Origin: an uncultured Ferrovum sp.
GTDB taxonomy: Bacteria > Pseudomonadota > Gammaproteobacteria > Burkholderiales > Ferrovaceae
DNA length: 64,000 nt
Assembly (NCBI GenBank): GCA_903909215.1
Contig: CAIVUX010000022.1
Coordinates: 7,609 to 71,608 of the forward strand
Reading direction: 5' to 3'
Position 1 is the stretch's first letter. Every line of letters begins with the position of its first letter. Positions 430 through 55,755 of this stretch are shown here, one piece after another. Under the pieces are notes generated by a model, which was given only the letters and a program-made list of their open reading frames with translations, was not told where the DNA came from and made no database searches. Position numbers and translations under genes: made by a program.

Positions 430-2766
430 TTATTTCTTCTTTTTGGGTTTAGTGGGCACTGCTTTAGGTGCTTTAGAGGTCGCTTTAGGTGCTTTAGAGG
501 TCGCTTTAGGTGGTTTAGGGGTCTGACCCCGTTTTGCCGCTTTAGGGGTCTGACCCCGGGTTGCCTGTTTTGTCGGTTTTGGGGTCTGACCCCGGTCTGA
601 GGCGGTGACAGATTCTGGTACAAAGTCGATCTTATTGGTTTCCATATCCACCCGCACCAACTGCACACGCACGCGATCGCCTAGGCGATAACGCATGCCG
701 GTGCGTTCGCCCAATAACTGATGGCGTGTGGCGTCATAGCGGAAATAATCGGTGCCCAATTCAGAAATATGCACCAACCCTTCCACATACACTTCATCCA
801 ACGCCACAAACAAACCAAAACTGGTCACCGAGCTGACAGAGCCTGAGAACACTTCACCCACACGGTCTTTCATGTAGAAACACTTGAGCCACGCTTCCAC
901 ATCACGGGTGGCGTCATCCGCCCGACGTTCCGTAAGCGAACAATGAGCCCCAATGGCTTTCCAATCGCCTGGTGCGTAAGTGCTATTGCCCAACACCGCC
1001 CGAATGGCACGATGCACCAGCAAATCGGGATAGCGGCGAATAGGCGATGTGAAATGCGCATACGCTGCATACGCCAAGCCAAAGTGACCGACATTTTCTG
1101 GGTTGTACTGCGCTTGCTGCAAGGAGCGCAACAAGACCGTTTCCAGCAGGCGTTGGTCGGGGCGGCCTTGAATCTTTTTAATAAGCTCGGCGTAATCCGC
1201 CGCTTTGGGTTTATCGCCTCCGGCCAAGTGCAAACCAAATTCTCCCAAGAAATCACGCACCATGGTAAGGCGCTCTGGGGCAGGCACGGGATGAATACGA
1301 TACAAGCAAGCATGTTGATGGCTGGACAAATAATCCGCAGCACAGACGTTGGCCGCCAACATGCATTCTTCAATTAACCGATGGGCGTCGTTGCGCTCAA
1401 CCGGCAAAATGGTTTCAATTTTGCCGCGATCGTCAAATACCATGCGCGTTTCATCGCTGGCAAAATCAATAGCGCCGCGCACCGCACGAGCGGCCAAAAA
1501 TACATGGAAAACTTTTTCTAGGTTTTGCAGCTGAGGAATAATGGGGCGTCGTGCAGAATCCGCCCGCTGTGGGGCTTCCAGAATAGCCGCCACTTCTGTG
1601 TAGGTTAAGCGGGCATGAGAATGCATCACTGCAGGATAAAAACGATACTCGGAAATCTGGCCCTCAGCACTCACCTGCATATCGCACACCATGCATAGGC
1701 GATCTACATTGGGATTGAGTGAACAAAGGCCGTTACTTAAGGCTTCAGGCAGCATGGGTATAACGCGACGAGGAAAATACACACTGTTGCCACGCTCATA
1801 GGCGGTTAAGTCCAACGCATCCTTGGGGCGCACATAAAACGACACGTCCGCAATGGCCACCACCAAGCGATGTCCGTCGCCAGAGGGCTCGGCAAACACG
1901 GCATCATCAAAGTCGCGTGCGGTTTCGCCATCAATGGTGACGAGAGGCAGCTTGCGCAAATCCACACGGCCCTTAATATCCTCTTCCCGCACACCAGCGG
2001 GCAGTTGGGCCGCCAATGCTTCCGCCGCAGGCGAGAACTCGTGAGGCAATTCGTGTTTGCGCAGCGCAATTTCCACTTCCATACCGGGGTCAGCGTAATT
2101 GCCCAACACCTCTACCACACGAGCGATGGGCTCTGATTGTCGGCTGGGCTGCGCCATTAATTCAATCATCACCACTTGGCCGGGGTTAGCGCCATGATGT
2201 TGGCCAGGGGACACCAAAATATCTTGGCTGATGCGCTTGTTCTCCGCCACAGCAAACAGCACTCCTTGCTCTTGAAACAAACGCGCCACCAAACGCGTGT
2301 TCACATGCTCCAAAATTTCCACAATGGTACCCTCTGGGCGGCCACGGGTATCGGTACCAATGGTGCGCACCATGACGCGATCACCATGCAAGACGCGTTG
2401 CATTTCGCGCGTGCCCAAAAAGATGTCGCTGCCGCCGTCTTCACGAATGGCAAAACCGAAACCTTCTGGATGTCCTTCCACGCGCGCTGAAACCAAATCC
2501 AGTTTGGCCGGCAAACAAAGTGCGTTTTTGCGATTGCGCATCAATTGACCATCACGCTCCATGGCGCGCAGGCGACGAGAAAACAACTCGCGCTCGCTCT
2601 CTTGAATGGTGAGCAGTCGTTCAATGCGCTCCACGGTCACCGGCACCCCCTCTTGGGAGAGAATTTGCAAAATGAACTCACGGCTGGGCAAAGGCTCAGG
2701 GTATTGGGTTTTTTCACGCTCCAGATGAGGATCTTGGAGTCGCAGGGGGGTATTTTCTGTTGACAA
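430..2766 (-). CDS. rnr: Ribonuclease R (3'-5' exoribonuclease) with a Lys/Pro-rich repeat-bearing C-terminal tail
   Basis: 778-aa ORF. It carries RNB-domain motifs (VTIDGETARDFDDAV, HFGLAYAAYAHFTSPIRRYPDL), a C-terminal S1 domain and a basic tail. It is collinear with E. coli RNase R as I remember it. TTG at 2766 is the only in-frame start upstream of the conserved DPxxEREK N-terminus. Confidence 0.95.
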   Translation of the reverse strand: MSTENTPLRLQDPHLEREKTQYPEPLPSREFILQILSQEGVPVTVERIERLLTIQESERELFSRRLRAMERDGQLMRNRKNALCLPAKLDLVSARVEGHPEGFGFAIREDGGSDIFLGTREMQRVLHGDRVMVRTIGTDTRGRPEGTIVEILEHVNTRLVARLFQEQGVLFAVAENKRISQDILVSPGQHHGANPGQVVMIELMAQPSRQSEPIARVVEVLGNYADPGMEVEIALRKHELPHEFSPAAEALAAQLPAGVREEDIKGRVDLRKLPLVTIDGETARDFDDAVFAEPSGDGHRLVVAIADVSFYVRPKDALDLTAYERGNSVYFPRRVIPMLPEALSNGLCSLNPNVDRLCMVCDMQVSAEGQISEYRFYPAVMHSHARLTYTEVAAILEAPQRADSARRPIIPQLQNLEKVFHVFLAARAVRGAIDFASDETRMVFDDRGKIETILPVERNDAHRLIEECMLAANVCAADYLSSHQHACLYRIHPVPAPERLTMVRDFLGEFGLHLAGGDKPKAADYAELIKKIQGRPDQRLLETVLLRSLQQAQYNPENVGHFGLAYAAYAHFTSPIRRYPDLLVHRAIRAVLGNSTYAPGDWKAIGAHCSLTERRADDATRDVEAWLKCFYMKDRVGEVFSGSVSSVTSFGLFVALDEVYVEGLVHISELGTDYFRYDATRHQLLGERTGMRYRLGDRVRVQLVRVDMETNKIDFVPESVTASDRGQTPKPTKQATRGQTPKAAKRGQTPKPPKATSKAPKATSKAPKAVPTKPKKKK
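461..523. repeat. 21-bp tandem repeat (about 3 units of gctttaggtgctttagaggtc) inside the rnr 3' end
   Basis: Units at 461-481 and 482-502 are identical. A third diverged unit at 503-523 runs into the first palindrome copy. On the minus strand it encodes KATSKAP-KATSKAP in the RNase R tail. Confidence 0.9.
518..593. repeat. Three direct copies of the 13-bp palindrome GGGGTCTGACCCC (518-530, 545-557, 581-593) within the rnr tail
   Basis: Exact matches read from the sequence. Each is translated on the minus strand as R-G-Q-T-P-K. Spacing between copies is 27 and 36 nt, both multiples of 3. Confidence 0.95.
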
Positions 2767-22990: not shown

Positions 22991-23902
22991 CTATTTTGGT
23001 TTCTTGGGGGCGGTTAACCCCAAGGTGCGGTGTGTGAGAGCGGGCAAGCTTAAACGCAAATCGGCCAAGTGAATGGGGTTTACGCCGGCAATGACAATGC
23101 CAGAACCGCGCGGCAATTGGTCGAGAACCACGCCCCAAGGATCCACAATCATACTGGAGCCATGGGTTTCACGACCATTCTTGTGATAACCCCCTTGCGC
23201 GGGCGCCACCACATAGGCCAGGTTTTCAATGGCGCGTGCACGGATCAGGGTTTCCCAATGGGCGCGGCCCGTGGTCTCGGTAAATGCTGAGGGGATAAAA
23301 ATTAAATCCACCGAACCCATGGCGCGGTAGAGCTCGGGAAAGCGCAAGTCGTAGCAGATGGATAGACCAATACGTCCGAAGGGGCTGTCGAGAGCCACTA
23401 CTTCATCGCCCGGTTGAATGGTTTTTTCTTCTTCGTAATGCTCAGCGCCCCGCCTAAAGCCAAACAAATGAATTTTGTCGTAACGGGCTACGCAATGGCC
23501 TTCGCTATTAAACACCAGGCAACTGTTGCGAATTTTTTTAGGGTCAGACCCCGTTAAGGGGGCTGACCCCTTAATCGTTTTAATCGGCACCGAGCCGCCC
23601 ACAATCCACACGCCATAACGCACCGCGGCACGTGCCAGAAATTCTTGAATGGGGCCTTTGCCAAAATCTTCTGCAGCGTTAATTTTATCTGTTTCACGCA
23701 TGCCCATAATGGCGAAATATTCTGGTAATGCCACAATAGAGGCACCTTGATCTGCCGCCATTTTAATGAGTCGACCGGCTTCAGATAGGTTTCCACCCAC
23801 ATTAGGACCCGAGGCCATCTGGATGGCGGCCACGCGAAAACTACCCGGTAAAGGGCGCGCTTTACCAAATCCTGAATCAATTTTTTTAGGGGAAACGCTC
23901 AT
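22991..23902 (-). CDS. Carbon-nitrogen hydrolase (nitrilase superfamily) protein
   Basis: The Glu-Lys-Cys triad contexts are present: VALPEYF, RYDKIHLF, GLSICYDLRFPE. The start was trimmed to the ATG at 23902 (MSVSPKK...), 10 nt downstream of the yhdP stop. The gene carries a palindrome pair in a loop (KGSAPLTGSDPKK). Confidence 0.85.
   Translation of the reverse strand: MSVSPKKIDSGFGKARPLPGSFRVAAIQMASGPNVGGNLSEAGRLIKMAADQGASIVALPEYFAIMGMRETDKINAAEDFGKGPIQEFLARAAVRYGVWIVGGSVPIKTIKGSAPLTGSDPKKIRNSCLVFNSEGHCVARYDKIHLFGFRRGAEHYEEEKTIQPGDEVVALDSPFGRIGLSICYDLRFPELYRAMGSVDLIFIPSAFTETTGRAHWETLIRARAIENLAYVVAPAQGGYHKNGRETHGSSMIVDPWGVVLDQLPRGSGIVIAGVNPIHLADLRLSLPALTHRTLGLTAPKKPK
23540..23570. repeat. 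Degenerate inverted pair of the 13-bp palindrome (AGGGTCAGACCCC, then gttaa, then GGGGGCTGACCCC)
   Basis: Each copy differs from GGGGTCWGACCCC at one position. On the minus strand it is read as G-S-A-P-L-T-G-S-D-P inside the CN-hydrolase gene. Confidence 0.85.
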
Positions 23903-29380: not shown

Positions 29381-30378
29381 GCTCACGCATTCTTATTGTC
29401 GGCGCCGCCTGGGTGGGCGACGCTGTACTGTCACAACCCTTGCTGGCCACACTGGCCGCACGCACTCCCCAACCTGAAATTCATATATTGGCTCCTGCTT
29501 TTACACAGGGGGTGTTGGCCCGCATGCCCGCAGTAACACGCATTATTGACAGTCCATTCAAGCATGGGGAATTGGGTTTGTTGACACGCTGGAGGTTGGG
29601 GCGATTTTTATCGCAACAGCAGTACAGCCAAGCCATCGTATTGCCCAACTCATTTAAATCTGCCTTAGTACCGTACTTTGCCAGCATTCCACTGCGCACA
29701 GGTATGGTGGGTGAATGGCGCAAGGGATTATTAAACGATGCGCGGGTATTGAATAAAACAACTTTGCCCTTGATGGTGGAACGTTTTGCTTCACTGGCAC
29801 TTGCCGCTGACGCGCCCCTGGCGCGTCCAGTGCCTCCGCCCCAATTGGTGGTAGAGCCTGCGGCACAAGCGTTGGCGTTGCGACGCTTAAATCTTTCAAC
29901 CCAGCAGCCCATCGCGGCGTTATGTCCAGGCGCTGAGTATGGCACCGCCAAGCGCTGGCCTGCCCGACACTTTGCCACCTTGGCGCGCACGTGGTTGGCT
30001 CAGGGGTTTCAAATTTGGTTGATGGGTTCCCCTAAAGATAGCCCCGTGGCACAGGCGGTGATGGATGGGTTGGTGGGCCCCATTCACAACCTATGCGGCA
30101 AAACTTCTCTTGCAGAAGCGGTGGATTTGATGGCCTTGAGCCAGCGTGTGGTGAGCAATGATTCAGGGTTGATGCATGTGGCTGCCGCTTTAAATCGCCC
30201 CCTGGTGGCCGTGTTTGGTTCTTCCAGTCCAGAATTCACACCACCCCTATCCAATCAGGCGCATGTGGTGCGTTTGGGTTTGCCCTGCAGCCCCTGTTTT
30301 CAACGTGAATGCCCATTGGGTCATTTAAATTGTTTAGAGCAGCTCACACCCGAGCATGTTTTGCAGGTGTGGACTTAA
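29377..30378 (+). CDS. waaF: ADP-heptose:LPS heptosyltransferase II (GT9)
   Basis: 333 aa. N-terminus ILIVGAAWVGDAVLSQPL, C-terminal NDSGLMHVAAAL and CSPCFQRECPLGH motifs. Confidence 0.85.
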   Translation: MSSRILIVGAAWVGDAVLSQPLLATLAARTPQPEIHILAPAFTQGVLARMPAVTRIIDSPFKHGELGLLTRWRLGRFLSQQQYSQAIVLPNSFKSALVPYFASIPLRTGMVGEWRKGLLNDARVLNKTTLPLMVERFASLALAADAPLARPVPPPQLVVEPAAQALALRRLNLSTQQPIAALCPGAEYGTAKRWPARHFATLARTWLAQGFQIWLMGSPKDSPVAQAVMDGLVGPIHNLCGKTSLAEAVDLMALSQRVVSNDSGLMHVAAALNRPLVAVFGSSSPEFTPPLSNQAHVVRLGLPCSPCFQRECPLGHLNCLEQLTPEHVLQVWT

Positions 30379-31037
30379 CTGTTTTGAAATACGTCGGCCA
30401 GTAAGTCCACGTCCTGCAAAATACCTTTATCCTCCACATCCACCCAAGTAATGCTTAGAGCATGGCGTTGCAACAGTGAGCGCGCCCCTTCATCACCTCG
30501 CAGTGCCATAAGCTCATTCCAATAGCGTCGAGAAAAGCCCACCGGATTACCCCGTGACCCCTGATAACACGGCACCACGATATCCGCCCCTTGCTCTAAG
30601 GCTTCTCGCAGCGCCGACACGGTGGAGGACTGTACCCAAGGCATATCGCCCAAGGCAACAATCCAGCCTGCAGCATCCGCGCTGCCCATAAGACCGCTGC
30701 GCAAGCTGAGCGACTGGCTTGGGATTAGTAAATATGGGGTCTGACCCCTGGGGGGGTCAGACCCCATATTTACCGTGTTTACCATGCTGACTAACTTCAA
30801 GTCAGCGGAGGTTACAGACACCACTGTTAAATTGGGACGCGAGGCGCCTATGGGGTTTTGTTGCAAAACGGCGCATAGGGGGGATGAGTCATCAGGCACC
30901 ACCGCCAGACTTTGCTGCAACGAGACCAAGCATTGAGCGGCGCGTACCACTACCGGCACGCCTTCTAATGCATGCAGTAATTTGTTGCTGCCAAAGCGTG
31001 AACTCTGCCCTGCGGCCAACAAAATTCCCACGATCAT
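30375..31037 (-). CDS. MobA-like NTP transferase (MocA-type molybdenum cofactor cytidylyltransferase) carrying a palindromic-element insertion
   Basis: N-terminus GILLAAGQSSRFGSNKLL and GDMPWV are typical of the MobA/MocA family. An ATGA overlap links it to xdhC. At 220 aa it is about 25 aa longer than the family members I remember, and the extra segment coincides with the repeat at 30729-30772. Confidence 0.8.
   Translation of the reverse strand: MIVGILLAAGQSSRFGSNKLLHALEGVPVVVRAAQCLVSLQQSLAVVPDDSSPLCAVLQQNPIGASRPNLTVVSVTSADLKLVSMVNTVNMGSDPPRGQTPYLLIPSQSLSLRSGLMGSADAAGWIVALGDMPWVQSSTVSALREALEQGADIVVPCYQGSRGNPVGFSRRYWNELMALRGDEGARSLLQRHALSITWVDVEDKGILQDVDLLADVFQNS
30729..30772. repeat. Perfect 20-bp inverted repeat: TAAATAT-GGGGTCTGACCCC, a 4-nt spacer (tggg), then GGGGTCAGACCCC-ATATTTA
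   Basis: Read directly from the sequence. On the minus strand it is translated in frame as V-N-M-G-S-D-P-P-R-G-Q-T-P-Y-L inside the MocA-like gene. A second 7-bp-stem hairpin, GCTGACT/AGTCAGC, lies at 30786-30806. Confidence 0.95.
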
Positions 31038-32020
31038 AATGGAGGTGGTGGCGCGCCTGTGGTTTGGCTGTCCTCGCGCCCTAGAGTAATGCCGTTGCGG
31101 ATGGCAGTGAGCTCTGCCAATATGGATATGGCTATTTCCGGAGGCGTGCGGCTGCCAATGGGTAAGCCTGCAGGACCGTGCAACGCTGCGCGCTGTGCAA
31201 CGCTTAAATCAAATAGAGCCAAACGTTCGCGGCGTGCCACTTGTGTGGCACGCGAACCTATGGCGCCCACATAAAACGCAGGGGATTTTAAGGCTTCTAT
31301 AAGCGCTAAATCATCTTGTTTTAAATCGTGCGTCAATGCCACGATGGCCGTATGGGGGTCGGGATTTAGCGCCAGGATAAAATCATCAGGCATCGCACTG
31401 TCGATAAGAACGTGATGCAAGCGCCACGACTTTTGAAATTCAGGACGCGGATCACAAATAAACACTTGATAATCTAACGCCAAAGCCATTTCAGCCAAAT
31501 AGCCACTGACCTGCCCGGCACCAATCATTAACAGTCGCCAGCGCGGTCCATGAATGGTGCGCAACACTGTGTCGGTACACAGCAGCGCATCAGACCGGTT
31601 GGCGGGCATGACATGCGCCGCACCTGTGGTGAGGTTTAACTCGCGTGCCACCACCAATTGCTCGGAGACGGCTTGCAGTAATTCATCAATGCCGCTTTCG
31701 GCATGCAAGGGCTCTAACACCACTTCCAAGCGGCCGCCACAGGGCAAGCCAAAACGTGCCGCCTCTTCTGCGCTTACGCCGTATGTGCATTTTTCGGGAT
31801 GAGCAATGGGGTGTTGTTGCACGCGTTCCAGTAAATCATCTTCAATACACCCGCCGGAAAGTGAGCCCACCAAGCGGCCATCCGAAGTGAGGGCCAGCAA
31901 CGCCCCAGCGGGGCGCGGCGCCGAACCCCAGGTGCGCACCAAGGTGGCCAACGTAACGACTGCCCCCTCTTGCTGCCAGGCGCTGACGGTTTTGAGCACT
32001 TCAAGATCGACACTATCCAT
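31034..32020 (-). CDS. xdhC: XdhC/CoxI-family molybdoenzyme maturation protein
   Basis: 328 aa. N-terminal XdhC_CoxI region ([35 protein letters not shown]) and a C-terminal Rossmann-like domain (LLMIGAGQVSGYLAEMA). Confidence 0.85.
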   Translation of the reverse strand: MDSVDLEVLKTVSAWQQEGAVVTLATLVRTWGSAPRPAGALLALTSDGRLVGSLSGGCIEDDLLERVQQHPIAHPEKCTYGVSAEEAARFGLPCGGRLEVVLEPLHAESGIDELLQAVSEQLVVARELNLTTGAAHVMPANRSDALLCTDTVLRTIHGPRWRLLMIGAGQVSGYLAEMALALDYQVFICDPRPEFQKSWRLHHVLIDSAMPDDFILALNPDPHTAIVALTHDLKQDDLALIEALKSPAFYVGAIGSRATQVARRERLALFDLSVAQRAALHGPAGLPIGSRTPPEIAISILAELTAIRNGITLGREDSQTTGAPPPPL

Positions 32021-39469: not shown

Positions 39470-40510
39470 ATGAATCCATCGCCACTTTTCTCCTCAAACC
39501 CTAAGGCTAGCCCCTTTCGAGCCCCCAGATGGCTGGGTGATCCTCATGCACAAACCCTCTATGGCGCCCTATTAGCACCCGTCGGCACGCCGCTCTGGCA
39601 ACGCGAAACATGGACCACCCCCGACAATGACTTTATCCATGTGGATACCCTAGAGGGGGCGCCCGACGCACCCTTACTGGTGATTTTTCATGGGCTGGAA
39701 GGCAGTACCAACTCACGCTACAGCCGCGCGTTAGCCCTTGCAACACAGGCACGGGGTTGGCGTGTATGCGCGCCCAACTTTAGAAGTTGTAGCGGCATCA
39801 TGAATCGCGCTCCGCGTCTGTATCATGCAGGCGACAGTGCCGAGATTGACTGGATTTTAAAACGCGCCTGGACCTTGGGGTCAGACCCCACTACTCTTGT
39901 GGGGTCTGACCCCAAAGTGCAACGACCCATGTTCGCGGTAGGCGTATCTTTGGGCGGCAACATGTTGCTGAAGTGGTTGGGCGAGCAAGGCGCTACAGCC
40001 AAACCTATCCTACATGCCGCCGCCGCCGTGTCTGCACCCCTGGATTTGGCTGCTGTGGCGGAAAACCTGTCTTTGGGTTTTAACCGCGTCTACACCCACC
40101 ATTTCTTAAGCACCCTTAAACAAAAGGCGCGCGCCAAATACGCACAGCACCCACACCTGTTCGACTTACACCGCACGCTGTCCTCGCGCACCATGCGTGA
40201 CTTTGACGATCACTTCATGGGACCGGTGCATGGCTTTCGTGATGCCGAAGATTATTGGGCACGCTCTAGCAGCACACCGTTTTTGCCGCTGATTCAGGTG
40301 CCCACGCTGTTATTAAACGCTCAGGATGACCCTTTTATGCCCGCCGGCGTGTTGCCTAATGCCCGCCAATGCGCCACGGCTGTTAGACGCGACTTTTCAG
40401 CACAAGGCGGTCATGTGGGATTTGTGTCTGACGGTTTTCCCGGCCATTTAAAGTGGATGCCGCAGCGGGTATTGGATTTTTTGGCGTCCTCTTTAAACCC
40501 AATCAGGTAA
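39470..40510 (+). CDS. Alpha/beta hydrolase, YheT/ABHD1-3-like, carrying a palindrome-pair insertion
   Basis: Contains HGLEGS, a nucleophile elbow GVSLGGN, and a C-terminal DDPF...GGHVGF. An ATG at 39470 follows the TTG used by the track. An extra segment, LGSDPTTLVGSDPK, lies just before the nucleophile elbow. Confidence 0.8.
   Translation: MNPSPLFSSNPKASPFRAPRWLGDPHAQTLYGALLAPVGTPLWQRETWTTPDNDFIHVDTLEGAPDAPLLVIFHGLEGSTNSRYSRALALATQARGWRVCAPNFRSCSGIMNRAPRLYHAGDSAEIDWILKRAWTLGSDPTTLVGSDPKVQRPMFAVGVSLGGNMLLKWLGEQGATAKPILHAAAAVSAPLDLAAVAENLSLGFNRVYTHHFLSTLKQKARAKYAQHPHLFDLHRTLSSRTMRDFDDHFMGPVHGFRDAEDYWARSSSTPFLPLIQVPTLLLNAQDDPFMPAGVLPNARQCATAVRRDFSAQGGHVGFVSDGFPGHLKWMPQRVLDFLASSLNPIR
39877..39913. 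repeat. Inverted pair of the 13-bp palindrome (GGGGTCAGACCCC, an 11-nt spacer, GGGGTCTGACCCC)
   Basis: Both copies are perfect. It is read on the plus strand as G-S-D-P-T-T-L-V-G-S-D-P within the hydrolase gene. Confidence 0.95.
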
Positions 40511-52775: not shown

Positions 52776-52819
52776 ATAATTTGGGGTCAGACCCCGCATG
52801 GGGTCTGACCCCAAATTAT
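52776..52819. repeat. Perfect 20-bp inverted repeat: ATAATTT-GGGGTCAGACCCC, a 4-nt spacer (gcat), then GGGGTCTGACCCC-AAATTAT. Intergenic.
   Basis: Read directly from the sequence. It has the same architecture as 30729-30772. It lies in the divergent kinase/folA promoter region and ends 13 nt before the folA ATG at 52833. Confidence 0.95.
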
Positions 52820-55095: not shown

Positions 55096-55755
55096 TCATC
55101 GACGCGCTGGCCCAGGTGCTTGATTTAATACCTGATATAGCTCCACCAGAATACCGGCCGTGGCACCCCAAATATGCCAATCCTGATAGGGAATGCTGTA
55201 ATAGCGCCGTTTCTGGCCCGCCCTCATAACTTCCTTAATCACGTGACGCGTTGGATCAAAGAAATGTTCCAGGGGCACTTCAAAAATTTCAGCCACTTCA
55301 AACTCATCGGCTTTAAGGGTTAGCGGGGGCTGCACCCAACCCACCACAGGAATGACGCGATACCCCGTGGGAATAAAATATTCCCGCAAGGTGCCCAGCA
55401 CCTTGACCTGTTGTGGCAACAGACCAATTTCCTCTTCGCTCTCGCGCAAGGCCGTGTGAATTGGATTGGGGTCTGACCCCTCAATGCGTCCACCGGGAAA
55501 GCTAATTTGTCCCGCATGATCACTCAGATGCAAAGTGCGTTTGGTGAGCAGTACATGAACGCCTTCAGGTCGATCCACCAAGGCCACCAATACGGCGGCT
55601 GGAACGGCGGCCAGACAGGCTTCCTCAGTCATCATGATGCGACCATCAAAAAAGGGCGCTGCAGGTGCGGCATTCAAAGAATCTTGAATCCATTCCTGCA
55701 GCGCTTCACGTGCTACTGATGCGTGACGCAAACGCTGAATCAGTGGCATCACCAT
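55096..55755 (-). CDS. NUDIX hydrolase, CoA pyrophosphatase (NudL-like)
   Basis: Nudix box GGRIEGSDPNPIHTALRESEEEIGL preceded by HAGQISFPGG. It is collinear with E. coli NudL as I remember it. Confidence 0.8.
   Translation of the reverse strand: MVMPLIQRLRHASVAREALQEWIQDSLNAAPAAPFFDGRIMMTEEACLAAVPAAVLVALVDRPEGVHVLLTKRTLHLSDHAGQISFPGGRIEGSDPNPIHTALRESEEEIGLLPQQVKVLGTLREYFIPTGYRVIPVVGWVQPPLTLKADEFEVAEIFEVPLEHFFDPTRHVIKEVMRAGQKRRYYSIPYQDWHIWGATAGILVELYQVLNQAPGPARR
55468..55480. repeat. Single perfect copy of GGGGTCTGACCCC inside the Nudix box region
   Basis: Exact match. On the minus strand it is read as E-G-S-D-P-N. Confidence 0.95.

Follow-up and report, generated by a model that had tools for sequence, protein, structure and literature searches.

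An in-frame palindromic repeat doublet in a MocA-like gene of an uncultured Ferrovum species and the repeat family to which it belongs

How did a long, perfect hairpin come to lie inside a reading frame that stays open, and does it do anything there? The question is raised by a window of 64,000 nucleotides (the whole stretch of DNA that was analyzed; contig CAIVUX010000022.1, positions 7,609 to 71,608) from an uncultured Ferrovum sp., in which the gene of a MocA-like protein carries such a hairpin. The genome under study (G000) is a draft assembly of 1.53 Mb in 51 contigs, with 52.6% GC and 99.85% completeness. We regard it as likely that the hairpin is a doublet of the repetitive extragenic palindromic (REP) type which has long been tolerated in frame in a functional MocA-like gene and was lengthened by palindrome extension.

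The hairpin, its host gene and its age

The features of the locus are as follows.

30375..31037, minus strand: gene of a MocA-like molybdenum cofactor cytidylyltransferase, host of the hairpin (open frame of 220 amino acids (aa); PF12804 and TIGR03310 matches, substitution rates and AlphaFold model)
30720..30860, minus strand: genus-specific extra segment, aa 60-106, about 33 aa beyond other-genus orthologues, near-neutral and modeled with low confidence (alignments, substitution rates, model confidence)
30728..30773, unstranded: perfect hairpin with 21-nt arms and a 4-nt loop, encoding aa 89-103, VNMGSDPPRGQTPYL (inverted-repeat search, RNA fold)
30736..30748, unstranded: core copy 1, GGGGTCTGACCCC on the plus strand (core scan)
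30749..30752, unstranded: loop TGGG, which reads CCCA in the mRNA; no other loop type is as frequent among the doublets (TGGG/CCCA in 16 of 115)
30753..30765, unstranded: core copy 2, GGGGTCAGACCCC on the plus strand (core scan)
30786..30806, unstranded: second hairpin of 7 bp, GCTGACT-N7-AGTCAGC, incidental and outside the repeat family

An earlier note on this DNA had described a perfect inverted repeat of 20 bp with a 4-nt loop. The repeat is real and perfect, and it is one pair longer than stated: the arms (30728-30748 and 30753-30773) have 21 nt each, are 100% complementary around the loop TGGG and form a palindrome of 46 nt in all. Each arm includes the 13-bp palindrome GGGGTCWGACCCC. 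Folding of the RNA, a check proposed in the same note, predicted a stem of 22 pairs (the 21 plus one G-U pair), with -58.8 kcal/mol and a z-score of -8.7 in a context of 121 nt. The second hairpin was suspected to extend the inserted unit; it is present at 30786-30806, and it was rejected as part of the element, occurring a single time in the genome and not being conserved in the relatives L045 and L043.

As had been claimed, the minus-strand frame stays open through the hairpin, and the uninterrupted translation of 220 aa includes ..VNMGSDPPRGQTPYLL... The protein matched Pfam NTP_transf_3 (PF12804) at 1.7e-30, with 189 residues falling on 157 profile positions. Its match to TIGR03310 (MocA) was confined to aa 108-213 and a short N-terminal stretch and scored 101.8 bits against a cutoff of 186, a shortfall that is partly due to the insert. 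The N-terminal LAAGxSxRxG and GDMP motifs were invariant in the alignments of MocA-like proteins. By these motifs, by PF12804 and by its xdhC neighbor the protein is classed as a MobA-like NTP transferase of the MocA-like kind, the enzyme specificity being predicted.

Alignment with orthologues bore out both the unusual length of the protein and the presence of an insertion, in frame, that separates the GDMPW motif from the nucleotide-binding part at the N-terminus. In the family's other genera the orthologues had 197-202 aa within a conserved gene order, and about 1900 database homologues were mostly 185-200 aa long. In the orthologues from other genera (185-202 aa) the strand LTVVSV and the helix SLSLRSGL were closer together by about 33 residues. 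Compared with PDB 3d5n, the query was longer by about 36 residues in the region of aa 46 to 109.

Among the relatives compared, the ratio of non-synonymous to synonymous substitution rates (dN/dS) was 0.09-0.18 outside aa 60-106 and 0.4-1.0 within this segment, which directly supports purifying selection on the host gene. The AlphaFold (AF2) model had a predicted local distance difference test score (pLDDT) of 85.6 and was confident except at aa 81-110 (pLDDT 52-69), with aa 89-107 modeled as coil. With a dN/dS of about 0.1, invariant motifs and an intact predicted fold, the gene can be considered functional. The gene, being under purifying selection, is therefore no pseudogene, and the idea of a 'functional pseudogene' in the earlier note is not upheld.

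Three metagenome relatives, with 95.2%, 93.5% and 81% nucleotide identity over the locus, share the doublet, in frame and in an identical position; every genus-level relative found has it, down to 81% identity. Therefore, the insertion is most likely older than their split, and the shared position is direct support for its age. Purifying selection that persisted in four lineages with stems of 21-35 bp argues that the hairpin does not abolish expression. In an orthologue from another genus (genome G002, L033 1468-2208) this loop contained a different, unrelated insert of about 45 aa that has no inverted repeat. The loop is thus simply insertion-tolerant, and this holds for MocA-like proteins generally.

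A genome-wide repeat family and the growth of its palindromes

The earlier note had treated the hairpin as unique. About 115 such doublets exist, and they make up a REP-type family that extends over the whole genome. The palindrome GGGGTCWGACCCC occurred in 336 exact copies, in 403 copies at no more than one mismatch and in 232 clusters, while a reversed control word had 0 copies. The window alone contained 22 matches to the core GGGGTCTGACCCC at no more than one mismatch, far above chance, as 0.03 were expected. The clusters were evenly spread, at least one being present in 53 of the 56 bins of 20 kb. The commonest layout was GGGGTCAGACCCCN4GGGGTCTGACCCC (A..T, n=64), and the reverse T..A orientation, to which the MocA copy belongs, was found five times. 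Besides the 115 doublets there were about 96 clusters consisting of single 13-mers, and in triplets and quadruplets the palindromes were nested, their spacers being reverse-complementary. The word is lineage-specific, with 0-8 copies in each of the family's other 32 genomes. No occurrence of the 13-mer was found in the literature searched.

The similarity of the MocA copy to other members of the family ended at 30734-30767, with one exception on contig C1. The doublet at C1:1806-1845 and the window sequence at 30735-30774 had a 9-nt flank GGTAAATAT and the loop CCCA in common, with opposite center bases; the chance of such flank sharing was estimated at about 1e-3. The copied unit may thus sometimes take in a flank. 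The representative of the 90% protein cluster P0001 read VNMGPDPP where the window has VNMGSDPP. This reading corresponds to a T-to-C change inside core 1 and hence possibly to a population variant of the core.

Loop types across the genome paired as reverse complements (GCAT/ATGC, TGGG/CCCA and CCTA/TAGG). One intergenic doublet could be followed through relatives:

52783..52812, unstranded: intergenic doublet in the spacer between folA and a sensor kinase gene, kept in relatives (L235 8944-8973; L233 8943-8972)

Its loop was ATGC in the window, GTAC in a 98% relative and ATTA in an 85% relative. Together with the pairing of loop types, this comparison suggests that doublet loops flip or turn over fast.

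A scan for the doublet across one genome per species found it very abundant in Parapusillimonas sp. JC17 and present also in Paracandidimonas, Duganella and Rugamonas. The sole Y1_Tnp gene of JC17 encodes a REP-associated tyrosine transposase (RAYT; NF047646, 62.8 bits), with doublet clusters on both sides and its stop codon within GTAG plus core. At least seven metagenome RAYT homologues, 48-60% identical and located on contigs of 47-70% GC, were likewise flanked by cores. In JC17 the repeat has the habit of a classical REP, forming 86 clusters in 376 kb, of which 82 were outside genes and one was a single core. Both genomes preferred the A..T doublet orientation (64 vs 5 in G000, 96 vs 1 in JC17). 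Since the doublet flanks RAYT genes in Parapusillimonas and in the metagenome contigs, it is therefore a REP-type hairpin of a RAYT clade. We infer that a RAYT-like enzyme made the original insertion in the MocA-like gene.

Four of the core-flanked metagenome RAYT genes (L241, L244, L246 and L251) were located on contigs of just 1.2-1.9 kb, which appears to illustrate how such genes drop out of binned genomes. The metagenome RAYTs could not be linked to the organism studied here, with only a short match of 75% in blastn and one weak match of about 50% identity in tblastx.

The flanks of the core pair in the MocA copy varied among relatives yet were complementary, reading TAAATAT / ATATTTA in the window, TAAGCAT / ATGCTTA in L045 and TTAACTTT / AAAGTTAA in L043. 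In L048 they were mismatched and intermediate (TAAATAT / ATGCTTA). L048 and L045, two near-identical gene copies from metagenomes, were identical at all 513 sites that aligned outside the insert, and within the insert an 18-nt indel and four substitutions set them apart. The left flank of L045 is the exact reverse complement of its right flank, giving perfect arms of 35 nt, and L048 has arms of 21 nt at 90%. This pair is direct evidence of one palindrome-extension event, and a single intrastrand template switch would account for it. The covariation of flanks among relatives would thus arise because of template switching, without selection on RNA structure.

The same pattern was found beyond this gene. 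Locus-specific complementary flanks of at least 4 nt adjoined 21 of the 115 doublets and reached at least 8 nt in 12, while controls that paired flanks across loci gave 2.2% at 4 nt or more and less than 0.6% at 6 nt or more. Tandem duplications of 12 nt also adjoined cores, for example in the CN-hydrolase gene of L201. The MocA stem would therefore have 21 bp and not 13 because palindromes of this repeat family grow or are repaired by intrastrand template switching. Template-switch mutagenesis at quasipalindromes has reportedly been described by Ripley in 1982 and by the Lovett laboratory. The present case is alike in that one arm would have been rewritten from the other in one event (L045 vs L048) and that flanks are extended genome-wide. 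It differs in that it concerns natural alleles of a coding gene, with a length change of 6 codons' worth, and is read from sequence alone.

The course of events that we propose is as follows. A REP-type doublet, consisting of two inverted 13-bp GGGGTCWGACCCC copies around a 4-nt loop, would have inserted in frame into a surface loop that varies in length among MocA-like enzymes, probably in an ancestor of the genus. It would have been carried since then as about 15 extra, almost neutral residues, the enzyme staying functional. Further slippage and duplication would have enlarged the loop to about 33 extra residues, and the stem would have been lengthened where one flank was overwritten by the reverse complement of the other via intrastrand template switching.

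Doublets and single cores inside genes

The MocA copy is not an isolated case. Our own crude gene calls gave 1392 genes covering 91% of the genome, and 54 intragenic sites were confirmed by orthologue alignment. The intragenic cores used all five stop-free frames, and the frame reading TGA was never used. The traces in the proteome were distinct: GSDP occurred 86 times (83 core-encoded), GQTP 48 times (44 core-encoded), GLTP 60 times (44 core-encoded) and GVRP 29 times (20 core-encoded), compared with 2-12 for scrambled control peptides. The host proteins include some that we take from their sequences to be Fmt, PurL, HrpA, UvrD, Mpl, a secretin and an ABC ATPase, of which only Fmt was checked against databases. 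In Fmt the interdomain linker was about 10 residues longer than in PDB 5uai.

Segments around 30 sites were joined as one query and searched in G006, a relative of another genus. Sites with several cores added 3-20 residues to the protein in 23 of 28 cases relative to the G006 orthologue, and genome-wide the doublets lengthen proteins by about 9 residues. Comparison with closer relatives was possible at several sites in the window, which are listed here together with one further intragenic cluster.

518..593, unstranded: three direct cores in the C-terminal tail of a 778-aa protein, reading RGQTPK three times (core scan)
23540..23570, unstranded: imperfect doublet in a CN-hydrolase gene (comparison with L201 and L200)
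39877..39913, unstranded: doublet in an alpha/beta-hydrolase gene, +39 nt in frame relative to the 81% relative, which has none
55468..55480, unstranded: single core in a Nudix box, length unchanged (comparison with relatives)

The alpha/beta-hydrolase doublet was also present in the 93.5% relative, while the gene of the 81% relative had 39 nt fewer at this place, without a shift of frame. In the CN-hydrolase gene, L201 (17440-17495), the 93.5% relative, had perfect cores and a 12-nt tandem duplication (TTAAGGGGTCAG twice), and the window sequence was shorter and imperfect. The CN-hydrolase gene of the 81% relative L200 had no core and its protein was 13 aa shorter than that of L201, the site sequence itself being unaligned. 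The imperfect pair is probably not older than the MocA copy. Window doublets that are present in the 93.5% relative and missing from the 81% relative indicate that doublets were still inserting during the diversification of the genus. The tail of the 778-aa protein, which was labeled RNase R in the earlier reading, seems to be partly built from repeat copies.

The family resembles the REP, bacterial interspersed mosaic element (BIME) and REPIN repeats with their RAYTs in E. coli, Pseudomonas and Stenotrophomonas, among them the GTAG-tagged REPs (PMC3733652), in being short GC-rich hairpins in hundreds of copies that often form inverted pairs and clusters. The 30-nt doublet with its 115 occurrences falls within the 20-40 nt of a short, GC-rich, high-copy palindrome. 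As in REP systems, the non-coding 9% of the genome had several times more clusters per base than the rest, clusters were enriched between convergent genes, and the identical doublet brackets a RAYT gene in JC17 and the metagenomes.

Several observations weigh against an ordinary REP element. No RAYT was detected in the draft assembly of G000 with the Pfam PF01797 profile or by tblastn with the JC17 RAYT, although contigs break at the repeat and core-flanked RAYTs can sit on contigs of about 1.3-3 kb missed by binning, or on longer ones; a cognate, repeat-flanked RAYT in the same genome was thus found in JC17 and not in G000. The bases preceding the doublets were ATA, TTA, TTT or ATT, and GTA was outside the twelve commonest, so that the 5' GTAG (or CGTC) tag is missing. 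Unlike classical REPs, which are mainly extragenic, 122 of the 232 clusters (53%) were inside called genes and 92 were deep inside. The mismatch spectrum (336 exact, 67 with one and 34 with two mismatches, vs 0, 4 and 32 for the control word) comprised letter-perfect old copies and scarcely any excess of two-mismatch copies, which points to maintenance beyond selfish spread. Of the single-core sites that could be aligned, 22 of 26 kept their length relative to the G006 orthologue, and such in-place writing of single cores, among them many of the approximately 96 single 13-mers, is not explained by transposition. At the MocA locus itself, the doublet is in the rare T..A orientation in the window, and that of the 81% relative has the A..T orientation, the loop GTAC and wholly different flanks. 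The differing copies could come from independent insertions at one hot spot, a reading that we do not favor. In summary, three features are not described for REPs: most copies are intragenic, both a RAYT and the GTAG tag are missing and, most notably, single cores are written with no change of length.

It is therefore worth weighing a different origin, in which the 13-mer is a functional or driven DNA word, or the site of a dimeric protein. Its copies would be written by a process that is short-patch, template-directed or biased by uptake, and selection or drive would preserve them. The MocA doublet would then be an instance of the word and no relic of transposition. Words of this kind are known from cyanobacteria, as HIP1 (GCGATCGC), and from Neisseriaceae and Pasteurellaceae, as DNA uptake sequences (PMC5861425, PMC4390886, PMC13756078). 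Like these, the 13-mer is a hyper-abundant short word in coding and non-coding DNA, which uses all stop-free frames, would originate by substitution with no change of length and is exact at old sites. In-place substitution in tolerated frames applies to the single cores and not to the MocA doublet.

The single cores provide the arguments for such a word. At these single-core sites, the G006 DNA departed from the core sequence in 4.8 of 13 positions on average. At predicted CarB, Ugd and ABC-ATPase sites the peptide over the core was the same as in G006, and synonymous bases alone differed. These three, which we take to be carbamoyl-phosphate synthase large subunit, UDP-glucose dehydrogenase and an ABC ATPase, were named from flanking peptides without a family search. 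In the Nudix box the window and the 98% relative read GAG GGG TCA GAC CCC, the 90% relative GAG CCC TCA GAC ACC and the 85% relative GAG CCC TCA GAC AGA. All compared sequences had the same length, so that in the window and the 98% relative four bases appear to have been replaced by the 13-mer. The core-encoded excess of GSDP and the sharp peak of the mismatch spectrum at perfect copies, old ones included, are in agreement with this. The RAYT-bearing JC17 has its clusters almost entirely outside genes and just one single core, in contrast to G000 with its many single cores and no detected RAYT. ComEC and a ComEA-like protein are present in G000.

On the other side, ComEC is near-universal and thus uninformative, no type IV pilus genes were found, with four pseudopilins of the type II secretion system (T2SS) in place of any type IV pilin, and no uptake receptor, methyltransferase or other recognizing protein was identified, no search aimed at methyltransferases having been made. 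Unlike HIP1 and the uptake sequences, the word has 13 nt and forms REP-type doublets that behave as true insertions (39 nt gained relative to the 81% relative, residues added at 23 of 28 sites), and the identical hairpin is linked to RAYTs elsewhere. A DNA word as the origin of the MocA doublet is thus possible, though we consider it rather doubtful.

The two readings are compatible and not mutually exclusive. A tentative combination, to which we would give no better chances, is that in this streamlined genome, with no RAYT detected, the REP core has turned into a DNA word that maintains itself. Some short-patch process without effect on length would overwrite look-alike codons with the exact 13-mer and keep old copies perfect, while doublets would still insert and grow, and more than 170 tetrapeptides (GSDP, GQTP, GLTP and GVRP) would have been respelled in housekeeping proteins. 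The process may consist in copying with existing cores as templates, in drive through biased uptake or in selection for a protein that binds as a dimer; like template switching, any such writing is deduced here from comparing sequences.

RNA function, neighboring genes and significance

A REP-type doublet remains our preferred reading of the MocA hairpin, and the RNA that it forms would have no selected regulatory role. The alternative is a selected mRNA element, for example one that attenuates, pauses translation or is cleaved by RNase III, which would tune MocA relative to the upstream xdhC-like gene.

31034..32020, minus strand: gene of an XdhC-family maturation factor, overlapping the MocA-like start (ATGA); profile matches, synteny kept in relatives

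The stem is indeed very stable (22 pairs, z -8.7), and stems of 21-35 bp are long enough for RNase III. It was also kept in four lineages in which the flanks changed yet remained complementary. However, the one template switch between the near-identical L048 and L045 accounts for this covariation, and L048 tolerates two mismatches in its arms. The same hairpin recurs at about 115 places in unrelated genes and spacers. It has no U-tract, and the terminator scan was at chance level; more broadly, the promoter and terminator scan of the locus yielded nothing above chance and the Rfam search gave no match, with sub-threshold microRNA noise only. We therefore hold a selected RNA function to be unlikely. 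A decaying pseudogene or an assembly artefact is most improbable and was ruled out: although 25 of 102 contig ends were within 45 nt of a core, so that the repeat does disturb assembly, four independent assemblies, each of a different sample, all had the hairpin in this position, and an open frame with conserved catalytic motifs and a dN/dS of about 0.1 speaks against decay.

Upstream of the MocA-like gene lies the xdhC-family gene, and a convergent heptosyltransferase gene overlaps the stop of the MocA-like gene. On the overlapping stops of these two convergent genes, at window 30353-30427, there is a separate inverted repeat (GTGGACTTA..TAAGTCCAC), which may be a candidate bidirectional terminator; the database search with it gave only sub-threshold Rfam microRNA noise. 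In the 81% relative (L043/L200) a BrnT/BrnA toxin-antitoxin pair was located between Trb-type conjugation genes and xdhC, and TrbE was called as two open reading frames. In the window and the 93.5% relative TrbE was intact and no BrnT/BrnA pair was present upstream of xdhC.

Palindromic repeats within genes have precedents. The Rickettsia palindromic elements (RPE) were reportedly first described by Ogata et al. in 2000. Like RPE and intragenic REPs, the repeats studied here are in-frame palindromes in functional genes, mostly dimers in tolerant loops, and occur in many unrelated housekeeping proteins. The MocA copy directly fits this pattern, since it interrupts its gene in frame, homologues are without it and the host is functional. 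RPE are 100-150 bp long and unrelated in sequence, whereas the unit here has 30 nt (about 10 aa). Intragenic in-frame REPs, GTAG-tagged REPs and RPE have already been described (Di Nocera et al. 2013, PMC3733652), and the share of copies in genes and the in-place single cores found here exceed the account given in that paper.

The MocA copy alone is thus one more case of palindromic repeats tolerated in frame within genes. Its setting is unusual: a genome of 1.5 Mb, 91% coding, in which a REP-type repeat is mostly located in genes and its transposase was undetected. A repeat usually confined to intergenic space has reshaped many proteins in this genome. The related metagenome assemblies reveal the dynamics, namely the in-frame gain of doublets, palindrome extension in one event and the apparent overwriting by the 13-mer in the Nudix box. 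Should the writing of cores without change of length turn out to be a process of its own, it would connect the biology of REPs and RAYTs to the unexplained phenomena of HIP1 and the uptake sequences and, if true, would represent a DNA-level driver of coordinated protein-sequence change.

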